Origin: Eledone cirrhosa
Lineage: Eukaryota
Assembly (NCBI GenBank): GCA_964016885.1
Contig: OZ024740.1
Span: forward strand, 430,838,001 to 430,902,000
DNA: 64,000 bases
Direction of reading: 5' to 3'
Shown piece after piece: positions 2,547 through 64,000 of the stretch; position 1 is the stretch's first letter, and each line of letters opens with the position of its first letter. The translations under genes were made by a program, and so were the position numbers. The notes below the pieces were generated by a model. It was not told the origin of the DNA. It saw nothing but the letters and a program-made list of their open reading frames with translations, and did no database searches.

Positions 2547-3287
2547 TTAAGAGGTGCCTACTGACTGTAGGTTTAAGTTTGTATGCAAGGGGAGGTGGGT
2601 CCTCTGTATAACTGCATAGCGCCAAAGATCTTGATCCAGTGACATTGTCTTAGACAGGTGTAAGTAGCGCCAAAGATCTCGATCCAGTGACATTGTCTTA
2701 GACAGGTGTAAGTAGCGCCAAAGATCTTGATCCAGTGACATTGTCTTAGAGAGGTGTAAGTAGCGCCAAAGATCTTGATCCAGTGACATTGTCTTAGAGA
2801 GGTGTAAGTAGCGCCAAAGATCTCGATCCAGTGACATTGTCTTAGACAGGTGTAAGTAGCGCCAAAGATCTTGATCCAGTGACATTGTCTTAGAGAGGTG
2901 TAAGTAGCGCCAAAGATCTCGATCCAGTGACATTGTCTTAGAGAGGTGTAAGTAGCGCCAAAGATCTCGATCCAGTGACATTGTCTTAGAGAGGTGTAAG
3001 TAGCGCCAAAGATCTCGATCCAGTGACATTGCCTTAGAGAGGTGTAAGTAGCGCCAAAGATCTCAATCCAGTGACATTGTCTTAGAGAGGTGTAAGTAGC
3101 GCCAAAGATCTCGATCCAGTGACATTGTCTTAGAGAGGTGTAAGTAGCGCCAAAGATCTCGATCCAGTGACATTGTCTTAGAGAGGTGTAAGTAGCGCCA
3201 AAGATCTTGATCCAGTGACATTGTTTTAGAGAGGTGTAAGTGAGCAAGGTCAGTTTTTATCACTTCGTCCCAGGTTTTTCTTGGTCT
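2547..3287 (-). mobile_element. 5'-truncated RTE-like LINE 3' fragment (ORF C-terminus) with an internal tandem amplification
   Basis: Minus strand from 3287 reads RPRKTWDEVIKTDLAH-(LHLSKTMSLD[R/Q]DLWRY)x13-AVIQRTHLP. This matches the RTE-clade C-terminal pattern GRP(R/K)xxW...D...DRxxWR, recognised by eye without a database search. Confidence 0.8.
2617..3240. repeat. 48-bp minisatellite, exactly 13 copies; unit TAGCGCCAAAGATCTCGATCCAGTGACATTGTCTTAGAGAGGTGTAAG
   Basis: 624 bp = 13 x 48, with near-identical units. The sequence is unrelated to the 48-mer at 1-2495. Confidence 0.98.
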
Positions 3288-3983: not shown

Positions 3984-4299
3984 TGTGAAAAGATGGAGCT
4001 ATCACTTCATCTAAAGAACACTGTGTGTTAGAGAATCGAGCAATGTGAAAAGATGGAGCTATCACTTATGGCATCTAAAGAACACCGTGTGTTAGAGAAT
4101 CGAGCAATGTGAAAAGATAGAGCTATCACTTATGGCATCTAAAGAACACCGTGTGTTAGAGAATCGAGTAATGTGAAAAGATGGAGCTATCACTTATGGC
4201 ATCTAAAGAACACCGTGTGTTAGAGAATCGAGCAATGTGAAAAGATAGAGCTATCACTTATGGCATCTAAAGAACACCGTGTGTTAGAGAATCGAGCAA
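3984..4299. repeat. 64-bp tandem repeat, about 5 copies; unit AATGTGAAAAGATGGAGCTATCACTTATGGCATCTAAAGAACACCGTGTGTTAGAGAATCGAGC
   Basis: Units start at 4042, 4106, 4170 and 4234. The first unit lacks 4 bp (ATGG). Confidence 0.96.
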
Positions 4300-5085: not shown

Positions 5086-5525
5086 TATGTTAGCCATTTT
5101 CATAGCACCAATTTGACATTGAAAAGTTAACATTGAAATCTTATTTCAATGTTAGTCATTAAGTTCTAAAAACAATATAAATTCTCACTGCAACTTTTAA
5201 TAACTGGTTTTATCAGTCACTAATGACCCAGAACAACTTTCTACATGGAATAAGATGTGAATTTAATCGTTTGATGACCATACTGAATGTGAATTAATTC
5301 AATTTATTAGAGAATATATAACTTAGCTCTAAACTAGTTTTGTGAGACTCTATTATAGTTTATGGCAGCGTTTCCCGAACAGTTTTAGAGAATATATTTC
5401 AGCAGCAGCAGCACACCCTCCCCATCCCGTCTGTAATGTTGGTTTAAAATGATGCATTGTAAATTAAATACTATTAAATTTTCTTTTCCATTTAAGAATA
5501 TATTGTTTAAGCAAGACTAGAAAAC

Positions 5526-5830
5526 ATGCAAGAAGTGTAGACTTGTTTTGTAGACCTTGAAAAGAGATGTGACTGCATTCCACATGACCTTTTGTGGGAT
5601 GTTCTACAGGAGTATGGGATTGATGGACAGTTTCTTGTTGCCTTGATGTCTCTATATGAATGTTTGGATAAGTCAAAACCATTCAATGTAGGTATCAGAC
5701 ACCACCAAGAGTGCATACGGTTACATCTTATAAACAGGATTGACATGCACAGTCAGGTTGGAAGTAGTATTGAGACTGGCAGGTGTAAAATTAGTCAGTT
5801 GGAATCTGCAGATGATATATGTTACTTAAC
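5526..5830 (+). pseudogene. Decayed reverse transcriptase fragment of an RTE-clade non-LTR retrotransposon (motifs A to C)
   Basis: Frame from 5541: TCFVDLEKRCDCIPHDLLWDVLQEYGIDGQFLVALMSLYECLDKSKPFNVGIRHHQECIRLHLINRIDMHSQVGSSIETGRCKISQLESADDI. This follows the RTE RT order CFVDLEKAxDxxPxxxLWxxLxxYG...SLY...SxxFxVxxGxRQGC...IxxLxFADDxVLL. There is a stop at 5538, the QGC motif is eroded, and there are apparent short deletions. Confidence 0.85.
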
Positions 5831-8800
5831 TCAGCAGATGATATAATGTTACTTACCCTTGCAGATGATATAGTGTTACTTAACTTAGCAGTTGATATAG
5901 TGTTACTTAACTTAGCAGATGATATAGTGTTACTTAACTTAGCAGATGATATAGTGTTACTTAACTTAGCAGATGATATAATGTTACTTAACTTAGCAGA
6001 TGATATAATGTTACTTAACTTAGCAGATGATATAATGTTACTTAACTTAGCAGATGATATAATGTTACTTAACTTAGCAGATGATATAATGTTACTTAAC
6101 TTAGCAGATGATATAATATTACTTAACTTAGCAGATGATATAATGTTACTTAAATTAGCAGATGATATAGTGTTACTTAACTTAGCAGATGATATAGTGT
6201 TACTTAACTTAGCAGATAATATGGTGTTACTTAACTCAGCAGATGATATAATGTTACTTAACTTAGCAGATGATATAGTGTTACTTAACTTAGCAGATGA
6301 TATAGTGTTACTTAACTTAGCAGATGATATAGTGTTACTTAACTTAGCAGATGATATAGTGTTACTTAACTTAGCAGATGATATAATGTTACTTAACTTA
6401 GCAGATAATATGGTGTTACTTAACTCAGCAGATGATATAATGTTACTTAACTTAGCATATGATATAGTGTTAGTTAACTTAGCAGATGATATAGTGTTAC
6501 TTAACTTAGCAGATGATATAATGTTACTTAACTTAGCAGATGATATAATGTTACATAACTTAGCAGATGATATAATGTTACTTAACTTAGCAGATGATAT
6601 AGTGTTACTTAACTTAGCAGATGATATAGTGTTACTTAACTTAGCAGATGATATAGTGTTACTTAACTTAGCAGATGATATAATGTTACTTAACTTAGCA
6701 GATGATATAGTGTTACTTAACTTAGCAGATGATATAGTGTTACTTAAGTGAGCAGATGATATAATGTTACTTAACTTAGCAGATGATATAGTGTTACTTA
6801 ACTTAGCAGATGATATAGTGTTACTTAACTTAGCAGATGATATAGTGTTACTTAACTTAGCAGATGATATAGTGTTACTTAACTGAGCAGATGATATAAT
6901 GTTACTTAACTGAGCAGATGATATAGTGTTACTTAACTTAGCAGATGATATAGTGTTACTTAACTTAGCAGATGAGATAGTGTTACTTAACTGAGCAGAT
7001 GATATAATGTTACTTAACTTAGCAGAAGATATAGTGTTACTTAACTTAGCAGATGATATAGTGTTACTTAACTTAGCAGATAATATAGTGTTACTTAACT
7101 TAGCAGATGATATAATGTTACTTAACTTAGCAGATGATATAGTGTTACTTAACTTAGCAGATGATATAGTGTTACTTAACTTAGCAGATGATATAGTGTT
7201 ACTTAACTGAGCAGATGATATAATGTTACTTAACTTAGCAGAAGATATAGTGTTACTTAACTTAGCAGATGATATAGTGTTACTTAACTTAGCAGATGAT
7301 ATAGTGTTACTTAACTGAGCAGATGATATAATGTTACTTAACTTAGCAGAGGATATAATGTTACTTAACTTAGCAGATGATATAGTGTTACTTAACTTAG
7401 CAGATGATATAGTGTTACTTAACTGAGCAGATGATATAATGTTACTTAACTTAGCAGAAGATATAGTGTTACTTAACTTAGCAGATGATATAGTGTTACT
7501 TAACTTAGCAGATGATATAGTGTTACTTAACTTAGCAGAAGATATAATGTTACTTAACTTAGCAGATGATATAGTGTTACTTAACTTAGCAGATGATATA
7601 CTGTTACTTAACTGAGCAGATGATATAGTGTTACTTAACTGAGCAGATGATATAATGTTACTTAACTGAGCAGATGATATAGTGTTACTTAACTGAGCAG
7701 ATGATATAATGTTACTTAACTGAGCAGATGATATAGTGTTACTTAGCTTAGCAGATGATATACTGTTACTTAACTTAGCAGATGATATAATGTTACTTAA
7801 CTGAGCAGATGATATAGTGTTACTTAACTTAGCAGATGATATAGAGTTACTTAACTGAGCAGATGATATAATGTTACTTAACTTAGCAGATGATATAGTG
7901 TTACTTAACTAAGCAGAAGATACAATGTTACTTAACTTAGCAGATGATATAGTGTTACTTAACTTAGCAGATGATATAGTGTTACTTAACTTAGAAGATG
8001 ATATAGTGTTACTTAAGTCAGCAGAAGATATGGTGTTACTTAACTTAGCAGATGATATAGTGTTACTTAACTGAGCAGATGATATAATGTTACTTAACTT
8101 AGCAGATGATATAGTGTTACTTAACTTAGCAGATGATATAGTGTTACTTAACTGAGCAGATGTTATAGTGTTACTTAACTTAGCAGATGATATAGTGTTA
8201 CTTAACTGAGGAGATGATATAGTGTTACTTAACTGAGCAGATGATATAGTGTTACTTAACTTAGCAGATGATATAGTGTTACTTAACTTAGCAGATGATA
8301 TAGTGTTACTTAACTTAGCAGATGATATAATGTTACTTAACTTAGCAGAAGATATAGTGTTACTTAACTTAGCAGATGATATAGTGTTACTTAACTTAGC
8401 AGATAATATAGTGTTACTTAACTTAGCAGATAATATAGTGTTACTTAACTTAGCAGATGATATAATGTTACTTAACTTAGCAGATGATATAGTGTTACTT
8501 AACTTAGCAGATGATATAGTGTTACTTAACTTAGCAGATGATATAATGTTACTTAACTGAGCAGATCATATAATGTTACTTAACTTAGCAAATGATATAG
8601 TGTTACTTAACTTAGCAGATGATATAGTGTTACTTAACTGAGCAGATGTTATAGTGTTACTTAACTTAGCAGATGATATAGTGTTACTTAACTGAGGAGA
8701 TGATATAATGTTACTTAACTTAGCAGATGATATAGTGTTACTTAACTTAGCAGATGATATAGTGTTACTTAACTTAGCAGATGATATAGTGTTACTTAAC

Positions 8801-11800
8801 TGAGCAGATGATATAATGTTACTTAACTTAGCAGAAGATATAGTGTTACTTAACTTAGCAGATGATATAGTGTTACTTAACTTAGCAGAGGATATAGTGT
8901 TACTTAACTTAGCAGAAGATATAATGTTACTTAACTTAGCAGATGATATAGTGTTACTTAACTTAGCAGATGATATACTGTTACTTAACTGAGCAGATGA
9001 TATAGTGTTACTTAACTGAGCAGATGATATAATGTTACTTAACTGAGCAGATGATATAGTGTTACTTAACTGAGCAGATGATATAATGTTACTTAACTGA
9101 CAGATGATATAGTGTTACTTAGCTTAGCAGATGATATACTGTTACTTAACTTAGCAGATGATATAATGTTACTTAACTGAGCAGATGATATAGTGTTACT
9201 TAACTTAGCAGATGATATAGAGTTACTTAACTGAGCAGATGATATAATGTTACTTAACTTAGCAGATGATATAGTGTTACTTAACTAAGCAGAAGATATA
9301 ATGTTACTTAACTTAGCAGATGATATAGTGTTACTTAACTTAGCAGATGATATAGTGTTACTTAACTTAGAAGCTGATATAGTGTTACTTAAGTCAGCAG
9401 AAGATATGGTGTTACTTAACTTAGCAGATGATATAGTGTTACTTAACTGAGCAGATGATATAATGTTACTTAACTTAGCAGATGATATAGTGTTACTTAA
9501 CTTAGCAGATGATATAGTGTTACTTAACTGAGCAGATGTTATAGTGTTACTTAACTTAGCAGATGATATAGTGTTACTTAACTGAGGAGATGATATAGTG
9601 TTACTTAACTGAGCAGATGATATAGTGTTACTTAACTTAGCAGATGATATAGTGTTACTTAACTTAGCAGATGATATAGTGTTACTTAACTTAGCAGATG
9701 ATATAATGTTACTTAACTTAGCAGAAGATATAGTGTTACTTAACTTAGCAGATGATATAGTGTTACTTAACTTAGCAGATAATATAGTGTTACTTAACTT
9801 AGCAGATGATATAATGTTACTTAACTTAGCAGATGATATAGTGTTACTTAACTTAGCAGATGATATAGTGTTACTTAACTTAGCAGATGATATAATGTTA
9901 CTTAACTGAGCAGATCATATAATGTTACTTAACTTAGCAGATGATATAGTGTTACTTAACTTAGCAGATGATATAGTGTTACTTAACTGAGCAGATGTTA
10001 TAGTGTTACTTAACTTAGCAGATGATATAGTGTTACTTAACTGAGCAGATGATATAATGTTACTTAACTTAGCAGAAGATATAGTGTTACTTAACTTAGC
10101 AGATGATATAGTGTTACTTAACTTAGCAGATGATATAGTGTTACTTAACTGAGCAGATGATATAATGTTACTTAACTTAGCAGAGGATATAGTGTTACTT
10201 AACTTAGCAGAAGATATAATGTTACTTAACTTAGCAGATGATATAGTGTTACTTAACTTAGCAGATGATATACTGTTACTTAACTGAGCAGATGATATAG
10301 TGTTACTTAACTGAGCAGATGATATAATGTTACTTAACTGAGCAGATGATATAGTGTTACTTAACTGAGCAGATGATATAATGTTACTTAACTGAGCAGA
10401 TGATATAGTGTTACTTAACTTAGCAGATGATATAGAGTTACTTAACTGAGCAGATGATATAATGTTACTTAACTTAGCAGATGATATAGTGTTACTTAAC
10501 TAAGCAGAATATATAATGTTACTTAACTTAGCAGATGATATAGTGTTACTTAACTTAGCAGATGATATAGTGTTACTTAACTTAGAAGATGATATAGTGT
10601 TACTTAAGTCAGCAGAAGATATGGTGTTACTTAACTTAGCAGATGATATAGTGTTACTTAACTGAGCAGATGATATAATGTTACTTAACTTAGCAGATGA
10701 TATAGTGTTACTTAACTTAGCAGATGGTATAGTGTTACTTAACTGAGCAGATGTTATAGTGTTACTTAACTTAGCAAATGATATAGTGTTACTTAACTGA
10801 GGAGATGATATAGTGTTACTTAAAGTAGCAGATGATATAGTGTTACTTAACTTAGCAGATGATACAGTGTTACTTAAACTTAGCAGATGATATAGTGTTA
10901 CTTAACTGAGCAGATGATATAATGTTACTTAACTTAGCAGATAATATGGTGTTACTTAACTCAGCAGATGATATAATGTTACTTAACTTAGCAGATGATA
11001 TAGTGTTACTTAACTTAGCAGATGATATAGTGTTACTTAACTTAGCAGATGATATAATGTTACTTAACTTAGCAGATGATATAATGTTACTTAACTTAGC
11101 AGATGATATAATGTTACTTAACTTAGCAGATGATATAGTGTTACTTAACTTAGCAGATGATATAGTGTTACTTAACTTAGCAGATGATATAGTGTTACTT
11201 AACTTAGCAGATGATATAATGTTACTTAACTTAGCAGATGATATAGTGTTACTTAACTGAGCAGATGATATAATGTTACTTAACTGAGCAGATGATATAG
11301 TGTTACATAACTTAGCAGATGATATAGTGTTACTTAACTTAGCAGATAATATAGTGTTACTTAACTTAGCAGATGATATAATGTTACTTAACTTAGCAGA
11401 TGATATAGTGTTACTTAACTTAGCAGATGATATAGTGTTACTTAACTTAGCAGATGATATAGTGTTACTTAACTGAGCAGATAATATAATGTTACTTAAC
11501 TTAGCAGAAGATATAGTGTTACTTAACTTAGCAGATGATATAGTGTTACTTAACTTAGCAGATGATATAGTGTTACTTAACTGAGCAGATGATATAATGT
11601 TACTTAACTTAGCAGAGGATATAGTGTTACTTAACTTAGCAGAAGATATAATGTTACTTAACTTAGCAGATGATATAGTGTTACTTAACTTAGCAGATGA
11701 TATACTGTTACTTAACTGAGCAGATGATATAGTGTTACTTAACTGAGCAGATGATATAATGTTACTTATCTGAGCATATGATATGGTGTTACTTAACTTA

Positions 11801-14800
11801 GCAGATGATATAATGTTACTTAACTGAGCAGATGATATAGTGTTACTTAACTTAGCAGATGATATAGAGTTACTTAACTGAGCAGATGATATAATGTTAC
11901 TTAACTTAGCAGATGATATAGTGTTACTTAACTAAGCAGAAGATATAATGTTACTTAACTTAGCAGATGATATAGTGTTACTTAACTTAGCAGATGATAT
12001 AGTGTTACTTAACTTAGAAGATGATATAGTGTTACTTAAGTCAGCAGAAGATATGGTGTTACTTAACTTAGCAGATGATATAGTGTTACTTAACTGACCA
12101 GATGATATAATGTTACTTAACTTAGCAGATGATATAGTGTTACTTAACTTAGCAGATGATATACTGTTACTTAACTGAGCAGATGATATAGTGTTACTTA
12201 ACTGAGCAGATGATATAATGTTACTTAACTGAGCAGATGATATAGTGTTACTTAACTGAGCAGATGATATAATGTTACTTAACTGAGCAGATGATATAGT
12301 GTTACTTAGCTTAGCAGATGATATACTGTTACTTAACTTAGCAGATGATATAATGTTACTTAACTGAGCAGATGATATAATGTTACTTAACTGAGCAGAT
12401 GATATAGTGTTACTTAACTGAGCAGATGATATAGTGTTACTTAACTTAGAAGATGATATAGTGTTACTTAAGTCAGCAGAAGATATGGTGTTACTTAACT
12501 TAGCAGATGATATAGTGTTACTTAACTGACCAGATGATATAATGTTACTTAACTTAGCAGATGATATAGTGTTACTTAACTTAGCAGATGATATACTGTT
12601 ACTTAACTGAGCAGATGATATAGTGTTACTTAACTGAGCAGATGATATAATGTTACTTAACTGAGCAGATGATATAGTGTTACTTAACTGAGCAGATGAT
12701 ATAATGTTACTTAACTGAGCAGATGATATAGTGTTACTTAGCTTAGCAGATGATATACTGTTACTTAACTTAGCAGATGATATAATGTTACTTAACTGAG
12801 CAGATGATATAGTGTTACTTAACTTAGCAGATGATATAGAGTTACTTAACTGAGCAGATGATATAATGTTACTTAACTTAGCAGATGATATAGTGTTACT
12901 TAACTAAGCAGAATATATAATGTTACTTAACTTAGCAGATGATATAGTGTTACTTAACTTAGCAGATGATATAGTGTTACTTAACTTAGAAGATGATATA
13001 GTGTTACTTAAGTCAGCAGAAGATATGGTGTTACTTAACTTAGCAGATGATATAGTGTTACTTAACTGAGCAGATGATATAATGTTACTTAACTTAGCAG
13101 ATGATATAGTGTTACTTAACTTAGCAGATGGTATAGTGTTACTTAACTGAGCAGATGTTATAGTGTTACTTAACTTAGCAAATGATATAGTGTTACTTAA
13201 CTGAGGAGATGATATAGTGTTACTTAAAGTAGCAGATGATATAGTGTTACTTAACTTAGCAGATGATACAGTGTTACTTAAACTTAGCAGATGATATAGT
13301 GTTACTTAACTGAGCAGATGATATAATGTTACTTAACTTAGCAGATAATATGGTGTTACTTAACTCAGCAGATGATATAATGTTACTTAACTTAGCAGAT
13401 GATATAGTGTTACTTAACTTAGCAGATGATATAGTGTTACTTAACTTAGCAGATGATATAATGTTACTTAACTTAGCAGATGATATAATGTTACTTAACT
13501 TAGCAGATGATATAATGTTACTTAACTTAGCAGATGATATAGTGTTACTTAACTTAGCAGATGATATAGTGTTACTTAACTTAGCAGATGATATAGTGTT
13601 ACTTAACTTAGCAGATGATATAATGTTACTTAACTTAGCAGATGATATAGTGTTACTTAACTTAGCAGATGATATAGTGTTACTTAACTGAGCAGATGAT
13701 ATAATGTTACTTAACTTAGCAGATGATATAGTGTTACTTAACTTAGCAGATGATATAGTGTTACTTAACTTAGCAGATGATATATTGTTACTTAACTTAG
13801 CAGATGATATAGTGTTACTTAACTGAGCAGATGATATAATGTTACTTAACTGAGCAGATGATATAGTGTTACATAACTTAGCAGATGATATAGTGTTACT
13901 TAACTTAGCAGATAATATAGTGTTACTTAACTTAGCAGATGATATAATGTTACTTAACTTAGCAGATGATATAGTGTTACTTAACTTAGCAGATGATATA
14001 GTGTTACTTAACTTAGCAGATGATATAGTGTTACTTAACTGAGCAGATAATATAATGTTACTTAACTTAGCAGAAGATATAGTGTTACTTAACTTAGCAG
14101 ATGATATAGTGTTACTTAACTTAGCAGATGATATAGTGTTACTTAACTGAGCAGATGATATAATGTTACTTAACTTAGCAGAGGATATAGTGTTACTTAA
14201 CTTAGCAGAAGATATAATGTTACTTAACTTAGCAGATGATATAGTGTTACTTAACTTAGCAGATGATATACTGTTACTTAACTGAGCAGATGATATAGTG
14301 TTACTTAACTGAGCAGATGATATAATGTTACTTATCTGAGCATATGATATGGTGTTACTTAACTTAGCAGATGATATAATGTTACTTAACTGAGCAGATG
14401 ATATAGTGTTACTTAACTTAGCAGATGATATAGAGTTACTTAACTGAGCAGATGATATAATGTTACTTAACTTAGCAGATGATATAGTGTTACTTAACTA
14501 AGCAGAAGATATAATGTTACTTAACTTAGCAGATGATATAGTGTTACTTAACTTAGCAGATGATATAGTGTTACTTAACTTAGAAGATGATATAGTGTTA
14601 CTTAAGTCAGCAGAAGATATGGTGTTACTTAACTTAGCAGATGATATAGTGTTACTTAACTGACCAGATGATATAATGTTACTTAACTTAGCAGATGATA
14701 TAGTGTTACTTAACTTAGCAGATGATATAGTGTTACTTAACTGAGCAGATGTTATAGTGTTACTTAACTTAGCAGATGATATAGTGTTACTTAACTGAGG

Positions 14801-17800
14801 AGATGATATAGTGTTACTTAACTGAGCAGATGTTATAGTGTTACTTAACTTAGCAGATGATATAGTGTTACTTAACTTAGCAGATGATATAGTGTTACTT
14901 AAATTAGCAGATGATATATGTTACTTAACTCAGCAGATGATATATTGTTACTTAACTTAGCAGATGATATAGTGTTACTTAACTTAGCAGATGATATAGT
15001 GTTACTTAACTGAGGACATGATATAGTGTTACTTAAAATAGCAGATGATATAGTGTTACTTAACTTAGCAGATGATACAGTGTTACTTAAACTTAGCAGA
15101 TGATATAGTGTTACTTAACTGAGCAGATGATATAATGTTACTTAACTTAGCAGATAATATGGTGTTACTTAACTCAGCAAATGATATAATGTTACTTAAC
15201 TTAGCAGATGATATAGTGTTACTTAACTTAGCAGATGATATAGTGTTACTTAACTTAGCAGATGATATAATGTTACTTAACTTAGCAGATGATATAATGT
15301 TACTTAACTTAGCAGATGATATAATGTTACTTAACTTAGCAGATGATATAGTGTTACTTAACTTAGCAGATGATATAGTGTTACTTAACTTAGCAGATGA
15401 TATAGTGTTACTTAACTTAGCAGATGATATAATGTTACTTAAATTAGCAGATGATATAGTGTTACTTAACTTAGCAGATGATATAGTGTTACTTAACTGA
15501 GCAGATGATATAATGTTACTTAACTTAGCAGATGATATAGTGTTACTTAACTTAGCAGATGATATAGTGTTACTTAACTTAGCAGATGATATATTGTTAC
15601 TTAACTTAGCAGATGATATAGTGTTACTTAACTGAGCAGATGATATAGTGTTACTTAACTGAGCAGATGATATAGTGTTACTTAACTTAGCAGATGATAT
15701 AGTGTTACTTAACTTAGCAGATGATATAGTGTTACTTAACTTAGCAGATGATATAATGTTACTTAACTTAGCAGAAGATATAGTGTTACTTAACTTAGCA
15801 GATGATATAGTGTTACTTAACTTAGCAGATAATATAGTGTTACTTAACTTAGCAGATAATATAGTGTTACTTAACTTAGCAGATGATATAATGTTACTTA
15901 ACTTAGCAGATGATATAGTGTTACTTAACTTAGCAGATGATATAGTGTTACTTAACTTAGCAGATGATATAATGTTACTTAACTGAGCAGATCATATAAT
16001 GTTACTTAACTTAGCAGATGATATAGTGTTACTTAACTGAGGAGATGATATAGTGTTACTTAACTGAGCAGATGATATAGTGTTACTTAACTTAGCAGAT
16101 GATATAGTGTTACTTAACTTAGCAGATGATATAGTGTTACTTAACTGAGCAGATGTTATAGTGTTACTTAACTTAGCAGATGATATAGTGTTACTTAACT
16201 GAGGAGATGATATAGTGTTACTTAACTGAGCAGATGATATAGTGTTACTTAACTTAGCAGATGATATAGTGTTACTTAACTTAGCAGATGATATAGTGTT
16301 ACTTAACTGAGCAGATGATATAATGTTACTTAACTTAGCAGAAGATATAGTGTTACTTAACTTAGCAGATGATATAGTGTTACTTAACTTAGCAGATGAT
16401 ATAGTGTTACTTAACTGAGCAGATGATATAATGTTACTTAACTTAGCAGAGGATATAGTGTTACTTAACTTAGCAGAAGATATAATGTTACTTAACTTAG
16501 CAGATGATATAGTGTTACTTAACTTAGCAGATGATATACTGTTACTTAACTGAGCAGATGATATAGTGTTACTTAACTGAGCAGATGATATAATGTTACT
16601 TAACTGAGCAGATGATATAGTGTTACTTAACTGAGCAGATGATATAATGTTACTTAACTGAGCAGATGATATAGTGTTACTTAGCTTAGCAGATGATATA
16701 CTGTTACTTAACTTAGCAGATGATATAATGTTACTTAACTGAGCAGTTGATATAGTGTTACTTAACTTAGCAGATGATATAGAGTTACTTAACTGAGCAG
16801 ATGATATAATGTTACTTAACTTAGCAGATGATATAGTGTTACTTAACTAAGCAGAATATATAATGTTACTTAACTTAGCAGATGATATAGTGTTACTTAA
16901 CTTAGCAGATGATATAGTGTTACTTAACTTAGAAGATGATATAGTGTTACTTAAGTCAGCAGAAGATATGGTGTTACTTAACTTAGCAGATGATATAGTG
17001 TTACTTAACTGAGCAGATGATATAATGTTACTTAACTTAGCAGATGATATAGTGTTACTTAACTTAGCAGATGATATAGTGTTACTTAACTGAGCAGATG
17101 TTATAGTGTTACTTAACTTAGCAAATGATATAGTGTTACTTAACTTAGCAGATGATATAGTGTTACTTAACTGAGCAGATGATATAATGTTACTTAACTT
17201 AGCAGATGATATAGTGTTACTTAACTTAGCAGATGATATAGTGTTACTTAACTTAGCAGATGATATAGTGTTACTTAACTTAGCAGATGATACAGTGTTA
17301 CTTAAACTTAGCAGATGATATAGTGTTACTTAACTGAGCAGATGATATAATGTTACTTAACTTAGCAGATAATATGGTGTTACTTAACTCAGCAGATGAT
17401 ATAATGTTACTTAACTTAGCAGATGAGATAGTGTTACTTAACTTAGCAGATGATATAGTGTTACTTAATTTAGCAGATGATATAATGTTACTTAACTTAG
17501 CAGATGATATAATGTTACTTAACTTAGCAGATGATATAGTGTTACTTAACTTAGCAGATGATATAGTGTTACTTAACTTAGCAGATGATATAGTGTTACT
17601 TAACTTAGCAGATGATATAATGTTACTTAACTTAGCAGATGATATAGTGTTACTTAACTTAGCAGATGATATAGTGTTACTTAACTGAGCAGATGATATA
17701 ATGTTACTTAACTTAGCAGATGATATAGTGTTACTTAACTTAGCAGATGATATAGTGTTACTTAACTGAGCAGATGATATAATGTTACTTAACTGAGCAG

Positions 17801-50800: not shown

Positions 50801-53800
50801 TGATATAGTGTTACTTAACTTAGCAGATAATATAGTGTTACTTAACTTAGCAGATGATATAATGTTACTTAACTTAGCAGATGATATAGTGTTACTTAAC
50901 TTAGCAGATGATATAGTGTTACTTAACTTAACAGATGATATAGTGTTACTTAACTGAGTAGATGATATAATGTTACTTAACTTAGCAGAAGATATAGTGT
51001 TACTTAACTTAGCAGATGATATAGTGTTACTTAACTTAGCAGATGATATAGTGTTACTTAACTGAGCAGATGATATAATGTTACTTAACTTAGCGGAGGA
51101 TATAGTGTTACTTAACTTAGCAGAAGATATAATGTTACTTAACTTAGCAGATGATATAGTGTTACTTAAGTTAGCAGATGATATACTGTTACTTAACTGA
51201 GCAGATGATATAGTGTTACTTAACTGAGCAGACGATATAATGTTACTTAACTGAGCAGATGATATAGTGTTACTTAACTGAGCAGATGATATAATGTTAC
51301 TTAACTGAGCAGATGATATAGTGTTACTTAGCTTAGCAGATGATATACTGTTACTTAACTTAGCAGATGATATAATGTTACTTAACTGAGCAGATGATAT
51401 AGTGTTACTTAACTTAGCAGATGATATAGAGTTACTTAACTGAGCAGATGATATAATGTTACTTAACTTAGCAGATGATATAGTGTTACTTAACTAAGCA
51501 GAAGATATAATGTTACTTAACTTAGCAGATGATATAGTGTTACTTAACTTAGCAGATGATATAGTGTTACTTAACTTAGAAGATGATATAGTGTTACTTA
51601 ACTCAGCAGAAGATATGGTGTTACTTAACTTAGCAGATGATATAGTGTTACTTAACTGAGCAGATGATATAATGTTACTTAACTTAGCAGATGATATAGT
51701 GTTACTTAACTTAGCAGATGATATAGTGTTACTTAACTTAGCAGCTGATATAGTGTTACTTAACTTAGAAGATCATATAGTGTTACTTAACTTAGCAGAA
51801 GATATAATATTATTTAACTTAGCAGATGATATATTGTTACTTAACTTAGCAGAAGATATAATGTTACTTAACTTAGCAGATGATATAGTGTTACTTAACT
51901 TAGCAGATGATATAGTGTTACTTAACTTAGTAGATGATATAGTGTTACTTAACTCAGCAGAAGGTAGAGTGTTACTTAACTTAGCAGATGATATAGTGTT
52001 ACTTAACTTAGCAGATGATATAATGTTACTTAACTCAGCAGATGATATATTGTTACTTAACTGAGCAGATGATGTAGTGTTACTTAACTTAGCAGATGAT
52101 ATAGTGTTACTTAACTTAGCAGATGATATAGTATTACTTAACTTAGCAGATGATATAGTGTTACTTAACTTAGCAGATGATATAGTGTTACTTAACTTAG
52201 CAGATGATATAGCGTTACTTAACTTAGCAGATGATATAATGTTACTTAACTTAGCAGATAATATGGTGTTACTTAACTCAGCAGATGATATTATGTTACT
52301 TAACTTAGCAGATGATATAGTGATAGTTAACTTAGCAGATGATATAGTGTTACTTAACTTAGCAGATGATATAGTGTTACTTAACTTAGCAGATGATATA
52401 ATGTTACATAACTTAGCAGATGATATAATGTTACTTAACTTAGCAGATGATATAGTGTTACTTAAATTAGCAGATGATATAGTGTTCCTTAACTTAGCAT
52501 ATGATATAGTGTTACTTAACTTAGCAGATGATATAATGTTACTTAACTTAGCAGATGATATAGTGTTACTTAACTTAGCAGATGATATAGTGTTACTTAA
52601 CTGAGCAGATGATATAATGTTACTTAACTTAGCAGATGATATAGTGTTACTTAACTTAGCAGATAATATAGTGTTACTTAACTTAGCAGATGATATAATG
52701 TTACTTAACTTAGCAGATGATATAGTGTTACTTAACTTAGCAGATGATATAGTGTTACTTAACTTAACAGATGATATAGTGTTACTTAACTGAGCAGATG
52801 ATATAATGTTACTTAACTTAGCAGAAGATATAGTGTTACTTAACTTAGCAGATGATATAGTGTTACTTAACTTAGCAGATGATATAGTGTTACTTAACTG
52901 AGCAGATGATATAATGTTACTTAACTTAGCAGAGGATATAGTGTTACTTAACTTAGCAGAAGATATAATGTTACTTAACTTAGCAGATGATATAGTGTTA
53001 CTTAAGTTAGCAGATGATATACTGTTACTTAACTGAGCAGATGATATAGTGTTACTTAACTGAGCAGATGATATAATGTTACTTAACTTAGCAGATGATA
53101 TAGTGTTACTTAACTTAGCAGATGATATAGTGTTACTTAACTTAACAGATGATATAGTGTTACTTAACTGAGCAGATGATATAATGTTACTTAACTTAGC
53201 AGAAGATATAGTGTTACTTAACTTAGCAGATGATATAGTGTTACTTAACTTAGCAGATGATATAGTGTTACTTAACTGAGCAGATGATATAATGTTACTT
53301 AACTTAGCAGAGGATATAGTGTTACTTAACTTAGCAGAAGATATAATGTTACTTAACTTAGCAGATGATATAGTGTTACTTAAGTTAGCAGATGATATAC
53401 TGTTACTTAACTGAGCAGATGATATAGTGTTACTTAACTGAGCAGATGATATAATGTTACTTAACTGAGCAGATGATATAGTGTTACTTAACTGAGCAGA
53501 TGATATAATGTTACTTAACTGAGCAGATGATATAGTGTTACTTAGCTTAGCAGATGATATACTGTTACTTAACTTAGCAGATGATATAATGTTACTTAAC
53601 TGAGCAGATGATATAGTGTTACTTAACTTAGCAGATGATATAGAGTTACTTAACTGAGCAGATGATATAATGTTACTTAACTTAGCAGATGATATAGTGT
53701 TACTTAACTAAGCAGGAGATATAATGTTACTTAACTTAGCAGATGATATAGTGTTACTTAACTTAGCAGATGATATAGTGTTACTTAACTTAGAAGATGA

Positions 53801-56800
53801 TATAGTGTTACTTAACTCAGCAGAAGATATGGTGTTACTTAACTTAGCAGATGATATAGTGTTACTTAACTGAGCAGATGATATAATGTTACTTAACTTA
53901 GCAGATGATATAGTGTTACTTAACTTAGCAGATCATATAGTGTTACTTAACTTAGCAGCTGATATAGTGTTACTTAACTTAGAAGATCATATAGTGTTAC
54001 TTAACTTAGCAGAAGATATAATATTATTTAACTTAGCAGATGATATAGTGTTACTTAACTTAGCAGAAGATATAATGTTACTTAACTTAGCAGATGATAT
54101 AGTGTTACTTAACTTAGCAGATGATATAGTGTTACTTAACTTAGTAGATGATATAGTGTTACTTAACTCAGCAGAAGGTAGAGTGTTACTTAACTTAGCA
54201 GATGATATAGTGTTACTTAACTTAGCAGATGATATAATGTTACTTAACTCAGCAGATGATATATTGTTACTTAACTGAGCAGATGATATAGTGTTACTTA
54301 ACTTAGCAGATGATATAGTGTTACTTAACTTAGCAGATGATATAGTGTTACTTAACTTAGCAGATGATATAGTGTTACTTAACTTAGCAGATGATATAGC
54401 GTTACTTAACTTAGCAGATGATATAATGTTACTTAACTTAGCAGATAATATGGTGTTACTTAACTCAGCAGATGATATTATGTTACTTAACTTAGCAGAT
54501 GATATAGTGTTAGTTAACTTAGCAGATGATATAGTGTTACTTAACTTAGCAGATGATATAGTGTTACTTAACTTAGCAGATGATATAATGTTACATAACT
54601 TAGCAGATGATATAATGTTACTTAACTTAGCAGATGATATAGTGTTACTTAACTTAGCAGATGATATAGTGTTCCTTAACTTAGCATATGATATAGTGTT
54701 ACTTAACTTAGCAGATGATATAATGTTACTTAACTTAGCAGATGATATAGTGTTACTTAACTTAGCAGATGATATAGTGTTACTTAACTGAGCAGATGAT
54801 ATAATGTTACTTAACTTAGCAGATGATATAGTGTTACTTAACTTAGCAGATAATATAGTGTTACTTAACTTAGCAGATGATATAATGTTACTTAACTTAG
54901 CAGATGATATAGTGTTACTTAACTTAGCAGATGATATAGTGTTACTTAACTTAACAGATGATATAGTGTTACTTAACTGAGCAGATGATATAATGTTACT
55001 TAACTTAGCAGAAGGTATAGTGTTACTTAACTTAGCAGATGATATAGTGTTACTTAACTTAGCAGATGATATAGTGTTACTTAACTGAGCAGATGATATA
55101 ATGTTACTTAACTGGGCAGATGATATAATGTTACTTAGCTTAGCAGATGATATACTGTTACTTAACTTAGCATATGATATAATGTTACTTAACTGAGCAG
55201 ATGATATAGTGTTACTTAACTTAGCAGATGATATAGAGTTACTTAACTGAGCAGATGATATAATGTTACTTAACTTAGCAGATGATATAGTGTTACTTAA
55301 CTAAGCAGAAGATATAATGTTACTTAACTTAGCAGATGATATAGTGTTACTTAACTTAGCAGATGATATAGTGTTACTTAACTTAGAAGATGATATAGTG
55401 TTACTAAACTCAGCAGAAGATATGGTGTTACTTAACTTAGCAGATGATATAGTGTTACTTAACTGAGCAGATGATATAATGTTACTTAACTTAGCAGATG
55501 ATATAGTGTTACTTAACTTAGCAGATTATATAGTGTTACTTAACTGAGCAGATGTTATAGTGTTACTTAACTTAGCAGATGATATAGTGTTACTTAACTG
55601 AGGAGATGATATAGTGTTACATAACTGAGCAGATGATATAGTGTTACTTAACTTAGCAGAAGATATAATGTTACTTAACTTAGCAGATGATATAGTGTTA
55701 CTTAACTTAGCAGATGATATACTGTTACTTAACTTAGCAGATGATATAATGTTACTTAACTTAGCAGATAATATAGTGTTACTTAACTTAGCAGATGATA
55801 TAGTGTTACTTAAATTAGCAGATGATATATGTTACTTAACTCAGCAGATGATATATTGTTACTTAACTTAGCAGATGATATAGTGTTACTTAACTTAGCA
55901 GATGATATTGTGTTACTTAACTGAGCAGATGTTATAGTGTTACTTAACTTAGCAAATGATATAGTGTTACTTAACTGAGGAGATGATATAGTGTTACTTA
56001 ATATAGCAGATTATATAGTGTTACTTAAATTAGCAGATGATACAGTGTTACTTAAACTTAGCAGATAATATAGTGTTACTTAACTTAGCAGATGATATAA
56101 TGTTACTTAACTTAGCAGATGATATAGTTTTACTTAACTTAGCAGATGATATAGTGTTACTTAACTTAGCAGATGATATAATGTTACTTAACTTAGCAGA
56201 TAATATGGTGTTACTTAACTCAGCAGATGATATAATGTTACTTAACTTAGCAGATGATATAGTGTTACTTAACTTAGCAGATGATATAGTGTTACTTAAC
56301 TTAGCCGATGATATAATGTTACTTAACTTAGCAGATGATATAATGTTACTTAACTTAGCAGATGATATAATGTTACTTAACTTAGCAGATGATATAGTGT
56401 TACTTAACTTAGCAGATGATATAGTGTTACTTAACTTAGCAGATGATATAGTGTTACTTAACTTAGCAGATGATATAATGTTACTTAACTTAGCAGATGA
56501 TATAGTGTTACTTAACTTAGCAGATAATATAGTGTTACTTAACTTAGCAGATGATATAATGTTACTTAACTTAGCAGATGATATAGTTTTACTTAACTTA
56601 GCAGATGATATAGTGTTACTTAACTTAGCAGATGATATAGTGTTACTTAACTGAGCAGATGATATAACGTTACTTAACTTAGCAGAAGATATAGTGTTAC
56701 TTAACTTAGCAGATGATAAAGTGTTACTTAACTTAGCAGATGATATAGTGTTACTTAACTGAGCAGATGATACAATGTTACTTAACTTAGCAGATGATAT

Positions 56801-59800
56801 AGTGTTACTTAACTTAGCAGATTATATAGTGTTACTTAACTGAGCAGATGTTATAGTGTTACTTAACTTAGCAGATGATATAGTGTTACTTAACTGAGGA
56901 GATGATATAGTGTTACATAACTAAGCAGATGATATAGTGTTACTTAACTTAGCAGAAGATATAATGTTACTTAACTTAGCAGATGATATAGTGTTACTTA
57001 ACTTAGCAGATGATATACTGTTACTTAACTTAGCAGATGATATAATGTTACTTAACTTAGCAGATGATATAGTGTTACTTAACTTAGCAGATGATATAGT
57101 GTTACTTAAATTAGCAGATGATATATGTTACTTAACTCAGCAGATGATATATTGTTACTTAACTTAGCAGATGATATAGTGTTACTTAACTTAGCAGATG
57201 ATATAGTGTTACTTAACTGAGCAGATGTTATAGTGTTACTTAACTTAGCAAATGATATAGTGTTACTTAACTGAGGAGATGATATAGTGTTACTTAATAT
57301 AGCAGATTATATAGTGTTATTTAAATTAGCAGATGATACAGTGTTACTTAAACTTAGCAGATGATATAGTGTTACTTAACTGAGCAGATGATATAATGTT
57401 ACTTAACTTAGCAGATAAAATGGTGTTACTTAACTCAGCAGATGATATAATGTTACTTAACTTAGCAGATGATATAGTGTTACTTAACTTAGCAGATGAT
57501 ATAGTGTTACTTAACTTAGCCGATGATATAATGTTACTTAACTTAGCAGATGATATAATGTTACTTAACTTAGCAGATGATATAATGTTACTTAACTTAG
57601 CAGATGATATAGTGTTACTTAACTTAGCAGATGATATAGTGTTACTTAACTTAGCAGATGATATAGTGTTACTTAACTTAGCAGATGATATAATGTTACT
57701 TAACTTAGCAGATGATATAGTGTTACTTAACTTAGCAGATGATATAGTGTTACTTAACTTAACAGATGATATAGTGTTACTTAACTGAGCAGATGATATA
57801 ATGTTACTTAACTTAGCAGAAGATATAGTGTTACTTAACTTAGCAGATGATATAGTGTTACTTAACTGAGGAGATGATATAGTGTTACATAACTGAGCAG
57901 ATGATATAGTGTTACTTAACTTAGCAGAAGATATAATGTTACTTAACTTAGCAGATGATATAGTGTTACTTAACTTAGCAGATGATATACTGTTACTTAA
58001 CTTAGCAGATGATATAATGTTACTTAACTTAGCAGATGATATAGTGTTACTTAACTTAGCAGATGATATAGTGTTACTTAAATTAGCAGATGATATATGT
58101 TACTTAACTCAGCAGATGATATATTGTTACTTAACTTAGCAGATGATATAGTGTTACTTAACTTAGCAGATGATATTGTGTTACTTAACTGAGCAGATGT
58201 TATAGTGTTACTTAACTTAGCAAATGATATAGTGTTACTTAACTGAGGAGATGATATAGTGTTACTTAATATAGCAGATTATATAGTGTTACTTAAATTA
58301 GCAGATGATACAGTGTTACTTAAACTTAGCAGATGATATAGTGTTACTTAACTGAGCAGATGATATAATGTTACTTAACTTAGCAGATAATATGGTGTTA
58401 CTTAACTCAGCAGATGATATAATGTTACTTAACTTAGCAGATGATATAGTGTTACTTAACTTAGCAGATGATATAGTGTTACTTAACTTAGCCGATGATA
58501 TAATGTTACTTAACTTAGCAGATGATATAATGTTACTTAACTTAGCAGATGATATAATGTTACTTAACTTAGCAGATGATATAGTGTTACTTAACTTAGC
58601 AGATGATATAGTGTTACTTAACTTAGCAGATGATATAGTGTTACTTAACTTAGCAGATGATATAATGTTACTTAACTTAGCAGATGATATAGTGTTACTT
58701 AACTTAGCAGATAATATAGTGTTACTTAACTTAGCAGATGATATAATGTTACTTAACTTAGCAGATGATATAGTGTTACTTAACTTAGCAGATGATATAG
58801 TGTTACTTAACTTAGCAGATGATATAGTGTTACTTAACTGAGCAGATGATATAACGTTACTTAACTTAGCAGAAGATATAGTGTTACTTAACTTAGCAGA
58901 TGATATAGTGTTACTTAACTTAGCAGATGATATAGTGTTACTTAACTGAGCAGATGATACAATGTTACTTAACTTAGCAGATGATATAGTGTTACTTAAC
59001 TTAGCAGATTATATAGTGTTACTTAACTGAGCAGATGTTATAGTGTTACTTAACTTAGCAGATGATATAGTGTTACTTAACTGAGGAGATGATATAGTGT
59101 TACATAACTAAGCAGATGATATAGTGTTACTTAACTTAGCAGAAGATATAATGTTACTTAACTTAGCAGATGATATAGTGTTACTTAACTTAGCAGATGA
59201 TATACTGTTACTTAACTTAGCAGATGATATAATGTTACTTAACTTAGCAGATGATATAGTGTTACTTAACTTAGCAGATGATATAGTGTTACTTAAATTA
59301 GCAGATGATATATGTTACTTAACTCAGCAGATGATATATTGTTACTTAACTTAGCAGATGATATAGTGTTACTTAACTTAGCAGATGATATAGTGTTACT
59401 TAACTGAGCAGATGTTATAGTGTTACTTAACTTAGCAAATGATATAGTGTTACTTAACTGAGGAGATGATATAGTGTTACTTAATATAGCAGATTATATA
59501 GTGTTATTTAAATTAGCAGATGATACAGTGTTACTTAAACTTAGCAGATGATATAGTGTTACTTAACTGAGAAGATGATATAATGTTACTTAACTTAGCA
59601 GATAAAATGGTGTTACTTAACTCAGCAGATGATATAATGTTACTTAACTTAGCAGATGAAATAGTGTTACTTAACTTAGCAGATGATATAGTGTTACTTA
59701 ACTTAGCCGATGATATAATGTTACTTAACTTAGCAGATGATATAATGTTACTTAACTTAGCAGATGATATAATGTTACTTAACTTAGCAGATGATATAGT

Positions 59801-62800
59801 GTTACTTAACTTAGCAGATGATATAGTGTTACTTAACTTAGCAGATGATATAGTGTTACTTAACTTAGCAGATGATATAATGTTACTTAACTTAGCAGAT
59901 GATATAGTGTTACTTAACTTAGCAGATGATATAGTGTTACTTAACTTAACAGATGATATAGTGTTACTTAACTGAGCAGATGATATAATGTTACTTAACT
60001 TAGCAGAAGATATAGTGTTACTTAACTTAGCAGATGATATAGTGTTACTTAACTTAGCAGATGATATAGTGTTACTTAACTGAGCAGATGATATAATGTT
60101 ACTTAACTTAGCAGAGGATATAGTGTTACTTAACTTAGCAGAAGATATAATGTTACTTAACTTAGCAGATGATATAGTGTTACTTAAGTTAGCAGATGAT
60201 ATACTGTTACTTAACTGAGCAGATGATATAGTGTTACTTAACTGAGCAGATGATATAATGTTACTTAACTTAGCAGATGATATAGTGTTACTTAACTTAG
60301 CAGATGATATAGTGTTACTAAACTTAACAGATGATATAGTGTTACTTAACTGAGCAGATGATATAATGTTACTTAACTTAGCAGAAGATATAGTGTTACT
60401 TAACTTAGCAGATGATATAGTGTTACTTAACTTAGCAGATGATATAGTGTTACTTAACTGAGCAGATGATATAATGTTACTTAACTTAGCAGAGGATATA
60501 GTGTTACTTAACTTAGCAGAAGATATAATGTTACTTAACTTAGCAGATGATATAGTGTTACTTAAGTTAGCAGATGATATACTGTTACTTAACTGAGCAG
60601 ATGATATAGTGTTACTTAACTGAGCAGATGATATAATGTTACTTAACTGAGCAGATGATATAGTGTTACTTAACTGAGCAGATGATATAATGTTACTTAA
60701 CTGAGCAGATGATATAGTGTTACTTAGCTTAGCAGATGATATACTGTTACTTAACTTAGCAGATGATATAATGTTACTTAACTGAGCAGATGATATAGTG
60801 TTACTTAACTTAGCAGATGATATAGAGTTACTTAACTGAGCAGATGATATAATGTTACTTAACTTAGCAGATGATATAGTGTTACTTAACTAAGCAGGAG
60901 ATATAATGTTACTTAACTTAGCAGATGATATAGTGTTACTTAACTTAGCAGATGATATAGTGTTACTTAACTTAGAAGATGATATAGTGTTACTTAACTC
61001 AGCAGAAGATATGGTGTTACTTAACTTAGCAGATGATATAGTGTTACTTAACTGAGCAGATGATATAATGTTACTTAACTTAGCAGATGATATAGTGTTA
61101 CTTAACTTAGCAGATGATATAGTGTTACTTAACTTAGCAGCTGATATAGTGTTACTTAACTTAGAAGATCATATAGTGTTACTTAACTTAGCAGAAGATA
61201 TAATATTATTTAACTTAGCAGATGATATAGTGTTACTTAACTTAGCAGAAGATATAATGTTACTTAACTTAGCAGATGATATAGTGTTACTTAACTTAGC
61301 AGATGATATAGTGTTACTTAACTTAGTAGATGATATAGTGTTACTTAACTCAGCAGAAGGTAGAGTGTTACTTAACTTAGCAGATGATATAGTGTTACTT
61401 AACTTAGCAGATGATATAATGTTACTTAACTCAGCAGATGATATATTGTTACTTAACTGAGCAGATGATATAGTGTTACTTAACTTAGCAGATGATATAG
61501 TGTTACTTAACTTAGCAGATGATATAGTGTTACTTAACTTAGCAGATGATATAGTGTTACTTAACTTAGCAGATGATATAGCGTTACTTAACTTAGCAGA
61601 TGATATAATGTTACTTAACTTAGCAGATAATATGGTGTTACTTAACTCAGCAGATGATATTATGTTACTTAACTTAGCAGATGATATAGTGTTAGTTAAC
61701 TTAGCAGATGATATAGTGTTACTTAACTTAGCAGATGATATAGTGTTACTTAACTTAGCAGATGATATAATGTTACATAACTTAGCAGATGATATAATGT
61801 TACTTAACTTAGCAGATGATATAGTGTTACTTAACTTAGCAGATGATATAGTGTTCCTTAACTTAGCATATGATATAGTGTTACTTAACTTAGCAGATGA
61901 TATAATGTTACTTAACTTAGCAGATGATATAGTGTTACTTAACTTAGCAGATGATATAGTGTTACTTAACTGAGCAGATGATATAATGTTACTTAACTTA
62001 GCAGATGATATAGTGTTACTTAACTTAGCAGATAATATAGTGTTACTTAACTTAGCAGATGATATAATGTTACTTAACTTAGCAGATGATATAGTGTTAC
62101 TTAACTTAGCAGATGATATAGTGTTACTTAACTTAACAGATGATATAGTGTTACTTAACTGAGCAGATGATATAATGTTACTTAACTTAGCAGAAGATAT
62201 AGTGTTACTTAACTTAGCAGATGATATAGTGTTACTTAACTTAGCAGATGATATAGTGTTACTTAACTGAGCAGATGATATAATGTTACTTAACTGGGCA
62301 GATGATATAATGTTACTTAGCTTAGCAGATGATATACTGTTACTTAACTTAGCATATGATATAATGTTACTTAACTGAGCAGATGATATAGTGTTACTTA
62401 ACTTAGCAGATGATATAGAGTTACTTAACTGAGCAGATGATATAATGTTACTTAACTTAGCAGATGATATAGTGTTACTTAACTAAGCAGAAGATATAAT
62501 GTTACTTAACTTAGCAGATGATATAGTGTTACTTAACTTAGCAGATGATATAGTGTTACTGAACTTAGAAGATGATATAGTGTTACTAAACTCAGCAGAA
62601 GATATGGTGTTACTTAACTTAGCAGATGATATAGTGTTACTTAACTGAGCAGATGATATAATGTTACTTAACTTAGCAGATGATATAGTGTTACTTAACT
62701 TAGCAGATTATATAGTGTTACTTAACTGAGCAGATGTTATAGTGTTACTTAACTTAGCAGATGATATAGTGTTACTTAACTGAGGAGATGATATAGTGTT

Positions 62801-64000
62801 ACATAACTGAGCAGATGATATAGTGTTACTTAACTTAGCAGAAGATATAATGTTACTTAACTTAGCAGATGATATAGTGTTACTTAACTTAGCAGATGAT
62901 ATACTGTTACTTAACTTAGCAGATGATATAATGTTACTTAACTTAGCAGATGATATAGTGTTACTTAACTTAGCAGATGATATAGTGTTACTTAAATTAG
63001 CAGATGATATATGTTACTTAACTCAGCAGATGATATATTGTTACTTAACTTAGCAGATGATATAGTGTTACTTAACTTAGCAGATGATATTGTGTTACTT
63101 AACTGAGCAGATGTTATAGTGTTACTTAACTTAGCAAATGATATAGTGTTACTTAACTGAGGAGATGATATAGTGTTACTTAATATAGCAGATTATATAG
63201 TGTTACTTAAATTAGCAGATGATACAGTGTTACTTAAACTTAGCAGATGATATAGTGTTACTTAACTGAGCAGATGATATAATGTTACTTAACTTAGCAG
63301 ATAATATGGTGTTACTTAACTCAGCAGATGATATAATGTTACTTAACTTAGCAGATGATATAGTGTTACTTAACTTAGCAGATGATATAGTGTTACTTAA
63401 CTTAGCCGATGATATAATGTTACTTAACTTAGCAGATGATATAATGTTACTTAACTTAGCAGATGATATAGTGTTACTTAACTTAGCAGATGATATAGTG
63501 TTACTTAACTTAGCAGATGATATAGTGTTACTTAACTTAGCAGATGATATAATGTTACTTAACTTAGCAGATGATATAATGTTACTTAACTTAGCAGATG
63601 ATATAGTGTTACTTAACTTAGCAAATGATATAGTGTTACTTAACTTAGCAGATGATATAGTGTTACTTAACTGAGCAGATGATATAACGTTACTTAACTT
63701 AGCAGAAGATATAGTGTTACTTAACTTAGCAGATGATATAGTGTTACTTAACTTAGCAGATGATATAGTGTTACTTAACTGAGCAGATGATACAATGTTA
63801 CTTAACTTAGCAGATGATATAGTGTTACTTAACTTAGCAGATTATATAGTGTTACTTAACTGAGCAGATGTTATAGTGTTACTTAACTTAGCAGATGATA
63901 TAGTGTTACTTAACTGAGGAGATGATATAGTGTTACATAACTAAGCAGATGATATAGTGTTACTTAACTTAGCAGAAGATATAATGTTACTTAACTTAGC
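5808..64000. repeat. 27-bp satellite array, over 58 kb and about 2,150 monomers; consensus GCAGATGATATA(G/A)TGTTACTTAACT(T/G)A
   Basis: 27-bp periodicity with no interruption seen up to the window end. Two common dimorphic sites (GTG/ATG and TTA/TGA) plus rarer diagnostic variants and occasional 26- and 28-bp monomers. Confidence 0.99.

Follow-up and report, generated by a model that had tools for sequence, protein, structure and literature searches.

The window is a stretch of 64,000 nucleotides (G000:C1:430,838,001-430,902,000) on a 442.9-Mb contig of a 3.0-Gb genome, and from position 5808 to its end it is occupied by a 27-bp satellite that splits a copy of a long interspersed nuclear element (LINE). 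The window was examined together with 150 kb downstream and 50 kb upstream of it, and positions beyond its limits are given in the coordinates of this extended window (Table 1). A single 27-bp array was reported by Tandem Repeats Finder (TRF) from 5808 to the window end (2,156 units, 93% matches), in agreement with the start and period proposed in an earlier reading of the bare letters (the sequence-only reading). That reading had put the array at over 58 kb, which holds for the in-window part; the true size is 162.4 kb (6,024 units), with the end at extended 168,232. The array runs head to tail without interruption as one TRF row, as expected of satellite DNA, and zero N were found in the window or the 150 kb downstream.

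The array unit corresponds to the ADDxVLLNx codons of the parent LINE and aligns to the codons read as F-ADDMVLLNS in the dispersed copies of its family. The amplified unit is thus the active-site sequence of a reverse transcriptase (RT), as had been proposed from the letters. ADDIVLLNL is the commonest unit translation (606 of the 2,156 in-window units); ADDIVLLNS, which had been named beside it as the monomer, proved to be a minor form (its GTG version has 23 exact copies in the window), and ADDIVLLN* was read in 261 in-window units, many units carrying TGA in the ADD frame. The first unit is only 26 bp long, and the RT frame therefore reads ADDICYL. Over the whole array 421 distinct units were distinguished, with regional gradients of variants. 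The array is not kept coding: in-frame stops occur in 1,480 of the 5,680 units of 27 bp (26%), and frameshifts are introduced throughout by 329 units whose length is 26 or 28 bp.

The left half of the LINE contains RT motifs up to the codon preceding ADD, and the frame 5541-5819, which the sequence-only reading had recognised as RT-like, translates TCFVDLEK...LWDVLQEYG...KISQLESADDI. By tblastn it was matched to residues 611-726 of protein P0021 (41% identity, E 4e-20, two-sequence database). Alignments by blastn begin at 5529, and in one family copy at 5502, placing the 5' edge at ~5502-5529. Decay of this half is visible as a stop at 5538-5540, three deletions relative to P0021 and a change of F to S at 5805-5807, by which FADD became SADD. 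Directly past the array the RT resumes (FDRFTAECC...KTETFILSRK...TLTYGHESW...GRRPRGRP), as the sequence-only reading had proposed to check beyond 64000. At this right junction ~12 bp of the parent are missing, and the copy ends in a GAA-rich tail (~168,913-168,940) preceded by the 3' motif GAATAAGTGGG, which is common to L065 and L080. Searches of Pfam with each LINE flank alone gave no match.

Positions 5529-5810 match a dispersed family at 69-85% identity (best 40 of 3,234 candidates), whose copies read EF-ADDMVLLNS-xEGDLQxALDRFxAECC at the junction. An RT domain (Pfam RVT_1) was found in other copies of the family with E values of 3.8e-19 and 2.4e-8; L003 and L073 pass the cut-off and L062 lies below it. 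The nearest solved structures are RTs of R2 retrotransposons, the FADD of L073 being aligned with the YADD of one of them, and the nearest database relatives of L073 (up to 60% identity) include endonuclease and RT proteins of ~1,000 amino acids, the named ones mostly from fish. P0021 (987 amino acids, PF03372/PF14529 and PF00078, 57% identity) has the layout of a single open reading frame (ORF) for endonuclease and RT. This layout holds in close relatives, and an endonuclease-like piece of L020 gave no relevant Pfam match. The parent is probably an RTE/Rex3-type LINE, an assignment made by comparing motifs by eye with named Rex3/RTE sequences and not from a tree. In PMC2887409, GaRex3-a01 and DrRTE-a01 have the same motif order and wording by eye (CFVDLEK, LFADDVVL, RFAxECxxxGMxIS, TLTYGHE and RPRGRPRTRW), and Rex3/RTE elements share the short 3' end with a simple repeat; the very short 3' untranslated region (UTR) of the parent likewise closes in a simple repeat. 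Unlike those elements, the copy described here is truncated at its 5' end and lacks the endonuclease part; stops and deletions interrupt it, and the array divides it in two.

The flanks of the array are consecutive parts of one LINE protein (P0021 residues 611-726, then 717-948). They were compared separately with 38 family copies (19 found per flank). In 32 of these both flanks lie on the same strand and at most 64 bp apart, with the unit at the beginning of the intervening DNA, the other six matching one flank only; in 13 of the 38 exactly 48 bp, one unit plus 21 bp, separate them; and in none of the family copies compared does an array stand between them. A 33-letter unit-junction pattern searched genome-wide matched 2,618 times on the forward strand and never on the reverse, the reversed control gave 0 matches, and all 2,618 lie inside this array. 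The satellite was thus found at no other locus, a check that the sequence-only reading had called for, and a genome-wide pattern search for the parent-type dimer junction gave 0 matches in other copies; these searches were exact, and diverged arrays or dimers could escape them. The majority unit letter at all 27 columns was seen among eight gap-free parent copies, and at columns 9, 12 and 26 it is a minority letter there (1-2 of 8 copies). Parent-minority letters have therefore become the array majority at these columns, the mark of homogenisation (concerted evolution). Because both halves of the parent are still attached, the array most likely grew where it stands by repeated local duplication. 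The claim that the locus is the birthplace of the satellite with the parent still attached was borne out by the collinear flanks; the left junction had been said to preserve the origin, and since the right junction survives too, the origin is better preserved than claimed. We regard it as highly probable that the 162-kb array inside this one dead LINE of putative RTE/Rex3 type was born there by slippage or unequal-exchange duplication and then grew neutrally.

Table 1. Positions of the array, its parent halves and other tandem features (window coordinates unless marked as extended or given by locus).
Feature	Position	Strand	Description and basis
Left LINE half	5502..5807	+	5'-truncated, decayed, putatively RTE/Rex3-type; blastn to family copies, tblastn to P0021
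27-bp satellite, in-window part	5808..64000	+	2,156 units; TRF, unit decomposition, parent columns
27-bp satellite, whole	extended 5808-168,232 (G000:C1:430,843,808-431,006,232)		6,024 units, 162.4 kb
Right LINE half	extended 168,233-168,940 (G000:C1:431,006,233-431,006,940)	+	FDRF to 3' end; P0021 residues 717-948
48-bp comparison array	2617..3241	-	13 copies of LHLSKTMSLDRDLWRY (minus strand); non-catalytic
28-bp unit	L138:562-676		four copies
48-bp array upstream	1-2495 (start 20.6 kb upstream)		481 x 48 bp, 23 kb
64-bp unit	3984-4299		five copies
61-bp unit	4638-5075	-	LINE 3' end with WNKLPTSVVSCRDTASFKTS in 3 copies
Duplicated segment	extended 169,100-214,000 (L031-L035)		~10.2 kb, tandemly duplicated
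57-bp array	G000:C1 from ~14,945,290 (L103, L169)		one strand
48-bp-unit LINE copies	G000:C4:203.9-204.7 Mb (L097-L102)	both	~22.5-kb spacing

The first step would have been the duplication, through slippage or unequal exchange, of 27 bp that include the ADD codons, probably aided by a weak CAGA.GA repeat at a distance of 27 bp; Haber and Louis modelled minisatellite birth by slippage or unequal exchange, as summarised in PMC6947457. In the eight gap-free parent copies the unit starts GCAGA(T/C)(G/A)A, and 27 bp further on most of them read xCAGAAG. The seed consists of CAGATGA and CAGAAGA/G, 27 bp apart, with 5-6 of 8 letters matching. Measured against the flanking repeats of 5-10 bp in the Haber and Louis model, it is imperfect and not rare, and joint-type units fit a crossover within it. 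Misalignment between the seed copies would yield joints in which ...ACTCA is followed by xCAGAAGA(C)ATGG. Among the 89 units with the parent-like letters 6A and 12G, 80 follow a unit ending in TCA, as against a base rate of 6.5% for 26C (372/5,680). These joint-type units rebuild parent positions 25-35 joined back onto 9-13, and eight of them, confined to 153-168 kb and so close to the right edge, also retain the parent letter 9C. Minority units thus likely keep the predicted joint of the first duplication. The F-to-S change of the left flank makes that flank match column 26C of the unit, and may be a prior mutation or a conversion from the array edge.

Several observations weigh against birth in place by such a duplication. 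The ancestral state was taken from paralogues, because no orthologous array-free allele was seen. No credible target-site duplication was found around the LINE copy; an AT-rich 8-mer is shared at 5473 and 168,977, the second occurrence lying past the tail. The counts of joint-type units are pseudo-replicated by block duplication and may go back to one or a few events. Equal or better seeds numbered 114-531 within 900 bp in each of seven copies, and a seed so weak and commonplace neither proves slippage nor explains the choice of site. Finally, the majority unit starts GCAGAT, with the letters of the first seed copy and not of the second, so a single clean crossover is insufficient and later conversion or mutation would be needed.

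After birth by duplication in place, the array probably grew neutrally through duplications of multi-kilobase blocks. Exact repeated blocks of at least 20 units contain 56% of units; the longest has 252 units (6.8 kb), compared with 7 after shuffling, and another has 161. Across 301 blocks of 20 units, the median difference from the best partner was 0.37% and the median lag 204 units, the two edge blocks being among the most diverged (5.6% and 8.7%), and random unit pairs differ by 7.7% (mean pairwise divergence). No regular higher-order repeat was detected, the best global lag identity being 0.147 vs 0.086 expected; irregular local periods of ~45-440 units dominate, with near-identical blocks of ~50-450 units. 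Identity between the flanks and their best family copies is 76% and 82% (18-24% different), and the low divergence between blocks, set against that of the flanks, suggests that kilobase-scale growth was recent and came long after the death of the copy. In short-read contigs of sample S1, the summed depth was ~12,000-13,600 on the unit vs 11.7 and 6.0 on unique flank; this fits real amplification to thousands of copies, though such a depth does not give the copy number and the assembled sample may be S1 itself. Two runs of restriction-site-associated DNA sequencing (RAD-seq), inspected for polymorphism between individuals, barely covered the junction and the unit.

An assembler that duplicated reads in so homogeneous a repeat could have inflated the length of the array: the 252-unit block is repeated without a single difference, the 161-unit block recurs as well, and the length is that given by the assembly. 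Zero N, the 421 distinct units with their regional gradients and an S1 depth that fits thousands of copies nevertheless make such inflation very unlikely. It is similarly improbable that the array is maintained as a chromosome-specific centromere or heterochromatin block. The neighbourhood is satellite-dense (a 23-kb 48-mer array and a 24-mer array of at least 28 kb), and transposon-derived arrays bind CENH3 in Rosa canina according to bioRxiv 10.64898/2026.09.17.752431, but the array here has no regular higher-order repeat and occupies a single locus by exact pattern, so that neither sharing nor higher-order structure was seen. Comparable arrays with other units were moreover met in 10 of 60 genome samples, on six contigs, too many for all to be centromeres. 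Insertion into the LINE of a pre-existing satellite that resembled the ADD codons by chance is hardly credible: no point in its support was found, all 27 majority letters occur in parent copies, the array lies exactly where the ADD codons belong, and no donor array was detected by exact genome-wide pattern.

A predisposition of the ADD region, in which the active-site codons, or slipping of the RT during synthesis of this copy, make it a recurrent satellite nursery, is also unlikely. One of the 38 family copies, L078 (G000:C3:222.3 Mb), carries a separate two-copy duplication of 22 bp at the FADD site, and ordinary indels are most frequent in the 48-bp bin containing ADD, at 0.44 per copy vs 0.03-0.42 in 11 others; a pair of bins with higher values (1.86 and 1.15) was set aside, consisting mostly of insertions shared by many copies that likely reflect deletions of the reference itself. 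The margin of the ADD bin is small, however, so that an indel hot spot is not separable from the neighbouring bins, and the comparison is biased because both queries abut that bin. No second parent-type 27-bp dimer was found in the genome by exact pattern, seed repeats of this quality are common, each of 200 shuffled versions folds better than the unit on either strand, and non-catalytic pieces have been amplified likewise (2617-3241 and the 28-bp unit in L138); ascertainment also plays a part, translatable motifs being preferentially noticed. A hairpin or other structure as the driver was rejected on the folding result (a control stretch folded from L062 lies downstream of the ADD site and is uninformative about it), and independent births at the ADD site were rejected on the 0 matches to the parent-type dimer, an exact search that misses diverged cases. 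The active-site identity of the unit is likely chance, without biology of its own, because the genome is full of such arrays from other sequences. The significance that the sequence-only reading implied for the catalytic motif did not hold up, because coding capacity is not maintained in the unit, nothing sets the seed apart, and non-catalytic sequence has commonly formed arrays in place here.

The array at 2617-3241 lies ~3 kb upstream of the ADD array and was amplified in place in the 3' end of a different and younger LINE-like family; in 10 of 11 relatives a single unit (49 bp) separates the same flanks. In L138 the 28-bp unit is repeated at the end of a retroelement-like ORF (KVVPIVIGALG), and its flanks are collinear in L135 and L146.

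The ADD array is a clean new example of an already known kind, the satellite derived from LINE ORF2. Known cases are chicken HinfI/SCR1 (CR1 3' UTR and partial ORF2), Phodopus PROsat and seal Pvc 20 (L1 ORF2), and conclusive evidence that particular portions of transposable elements (TEs) are preferred is said to be lacking (PMC9659126). Like these, the ADD array has a tandem unit taken from LINE coding sequence; they are described as recognised by homology of the unit, whereas the ADD array still stands between the halves of its parent at one locus. Minisatellites have also been born in TEs, for example in Alu, by the Haber and Louis route with flanking repeats of 5-10 bp (PMC6947457, PMC3389668). 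In human, 23% of mini- and satellites are TE-derived, and those TE-derived repeats that known mechanisms leave unexplained have mostly two units (PMC3389668). The ADD array resembles TE-born minisatellites in that a unit of 10-100 bp was duplicated within a retroposon and then expanded locally, and differs from them in its 6,024 units and imperfect seed (5-6/8). Expanded arrays derived from retrotransposons are known as the Ogre satellites of Lathyrus (PMC7004042), CRM1TR/CRM4TR of maize (PMC3648361) and the Athila arrays of Rosa canina, which reach 238.7 kb with units of 1.6-2.2 kb (bioRxiv 10.64898/2026.09.17.752431). All of these and the ADD array are long arrays of retroelement sequence at particular loci, but the Ogre, CRM and Athila arrays come from long terminal repeat (LTR) elements and are mainly (peri)centromeric, whereas the ADD array comes from a LINE. 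The Lathyrus arrays pre-exist in short form in the dispersed element (PMC7004042), and the CRM1TR/CRM4TR units come from LTR-UTR segments (PMC3648361); the other copies of the ADD family have no tandem unit, and the ADD event is private to one dead copy. In a literature search of weak coverage, most subscription papers lying outside it, no report was found of a single-locus array of more than 100 kb between the halves of one LINE, nor of a comparable genome-wide pattern of arrays in octopods, the host group that SINE (short interspersed nuclear element) motifs may point to. Satellite origins are usually inferred after the parent context has been lost. Here a single locus still shows both parent halves, the unit in its ancestral form (from paralogues), what is likely the first joint, and the block duplications that came later, with the quality of a textbook case.

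Sixty evenly spaced 10-kb stretches were sampled from the genome, and 35% of their bases were tandem repeats. In the ten stretches noted above at least 95% of the sequence was tandem, no two sharing a unit, and seven of them passed a complexity filter; six of the seven were tested by exact pattern (L120 was left out). Five arrays behave as one locus, their matches being one-stranded with the first within the sampled stretch or at most 108 kb before it (exact matches: L161, 557; L114, 271; L103, 754; L153, 15; L122, 373); this holds for all matches of L153 and, for L161, L114, L103 and L122, among the matches listed, and more loci on the same strand are possible. The sixth, a 19-bp satellite (L143/L165; G000:C5:60.0 Mb and C1:279.4 Mb), gave 17,502 exact forward matches on at least two contigs, and its C1 block, which starts behind an N gap, may reflect scaffolding placement or a true major satellite. 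The 57-bp array of L103 and L169 would extend over ~370 kb if it is one locus at the listed density. No TE parent was found in a 0.9-Mb library at the left junctions of L163, L167 and L169; L171 grows from GTT-rich sequence beside a SINE-like repeat, L165 starts behind the N gap and L170 lies wholly inside its array. A TE origin is not demonstrated for any big sampled array. Of 42 smaller arrays, 10 touched a stretch edge and were dropped, and 7 of the remaining 32 had collinear flanks; several of these flanks were of low complexity or belonged to neighbouring tandem repeats, and the rate was not used.

The sampled arrays imply that giant local expansions are likely numerous in this genome and that the ADD array is among them, with a parent that happens to be recognisable. 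A tentative extension, which we hold to be possible but somewhat short of probable, is that the genome turns arbitrary pieces of 15-85 bp of its own DNA into private arrays, each at a single locus and tens to hundreds of kilobases long, which number in the thousands and amount to about a sixth of its sequence. This genome-wide crop of apparently single-locus giant arrays is a more interesting lead than the ADD array itself. If most large arrays are private in-place expansions, they would form a large natural experiment on satellite birth; TE-born arrays would carry an ancestral reference on both sides, so that thousands of independent events could be used to count and date how satellites are born, grow and become homogeneous. 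Such a pattern would also imply that repair or recombination has changed in this lineage.

Other tandem repeats surround the locus. The 481-unit array at the start of the window lies inside a SINE-like dispersed repeat, and related units form arrays at L064, L065, L108 and L152; the 64-bp repeat stands between the 48-bp comparison array and the LINE 3' end with the 61-bp unit. That 3' end is presumably of CR1/L2 type. In contrast to the ADD array, the 61-bp unit is tandem at dozens of loci with 92-97% identity and is thus a dispersed minisatellite carried by a LINE; the collinear test failed for it, the relatives carrying arrays themselves. Downstream of the right LINE half, 204-mer, 49-mer and 24-mer arrays recur at +10,195 bp within the duplicated segment, and the second copy of the 24-bp array is at least 28 kb long vs 5.5 kb for the first, the same seed having expanded differently. 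On G000:C4, equally scoring copies of the LINE piece with the 48-bp unit recur at ~22.5-kb spacing on both strands, which likely represents a large segmental tandem or inverted duplication.

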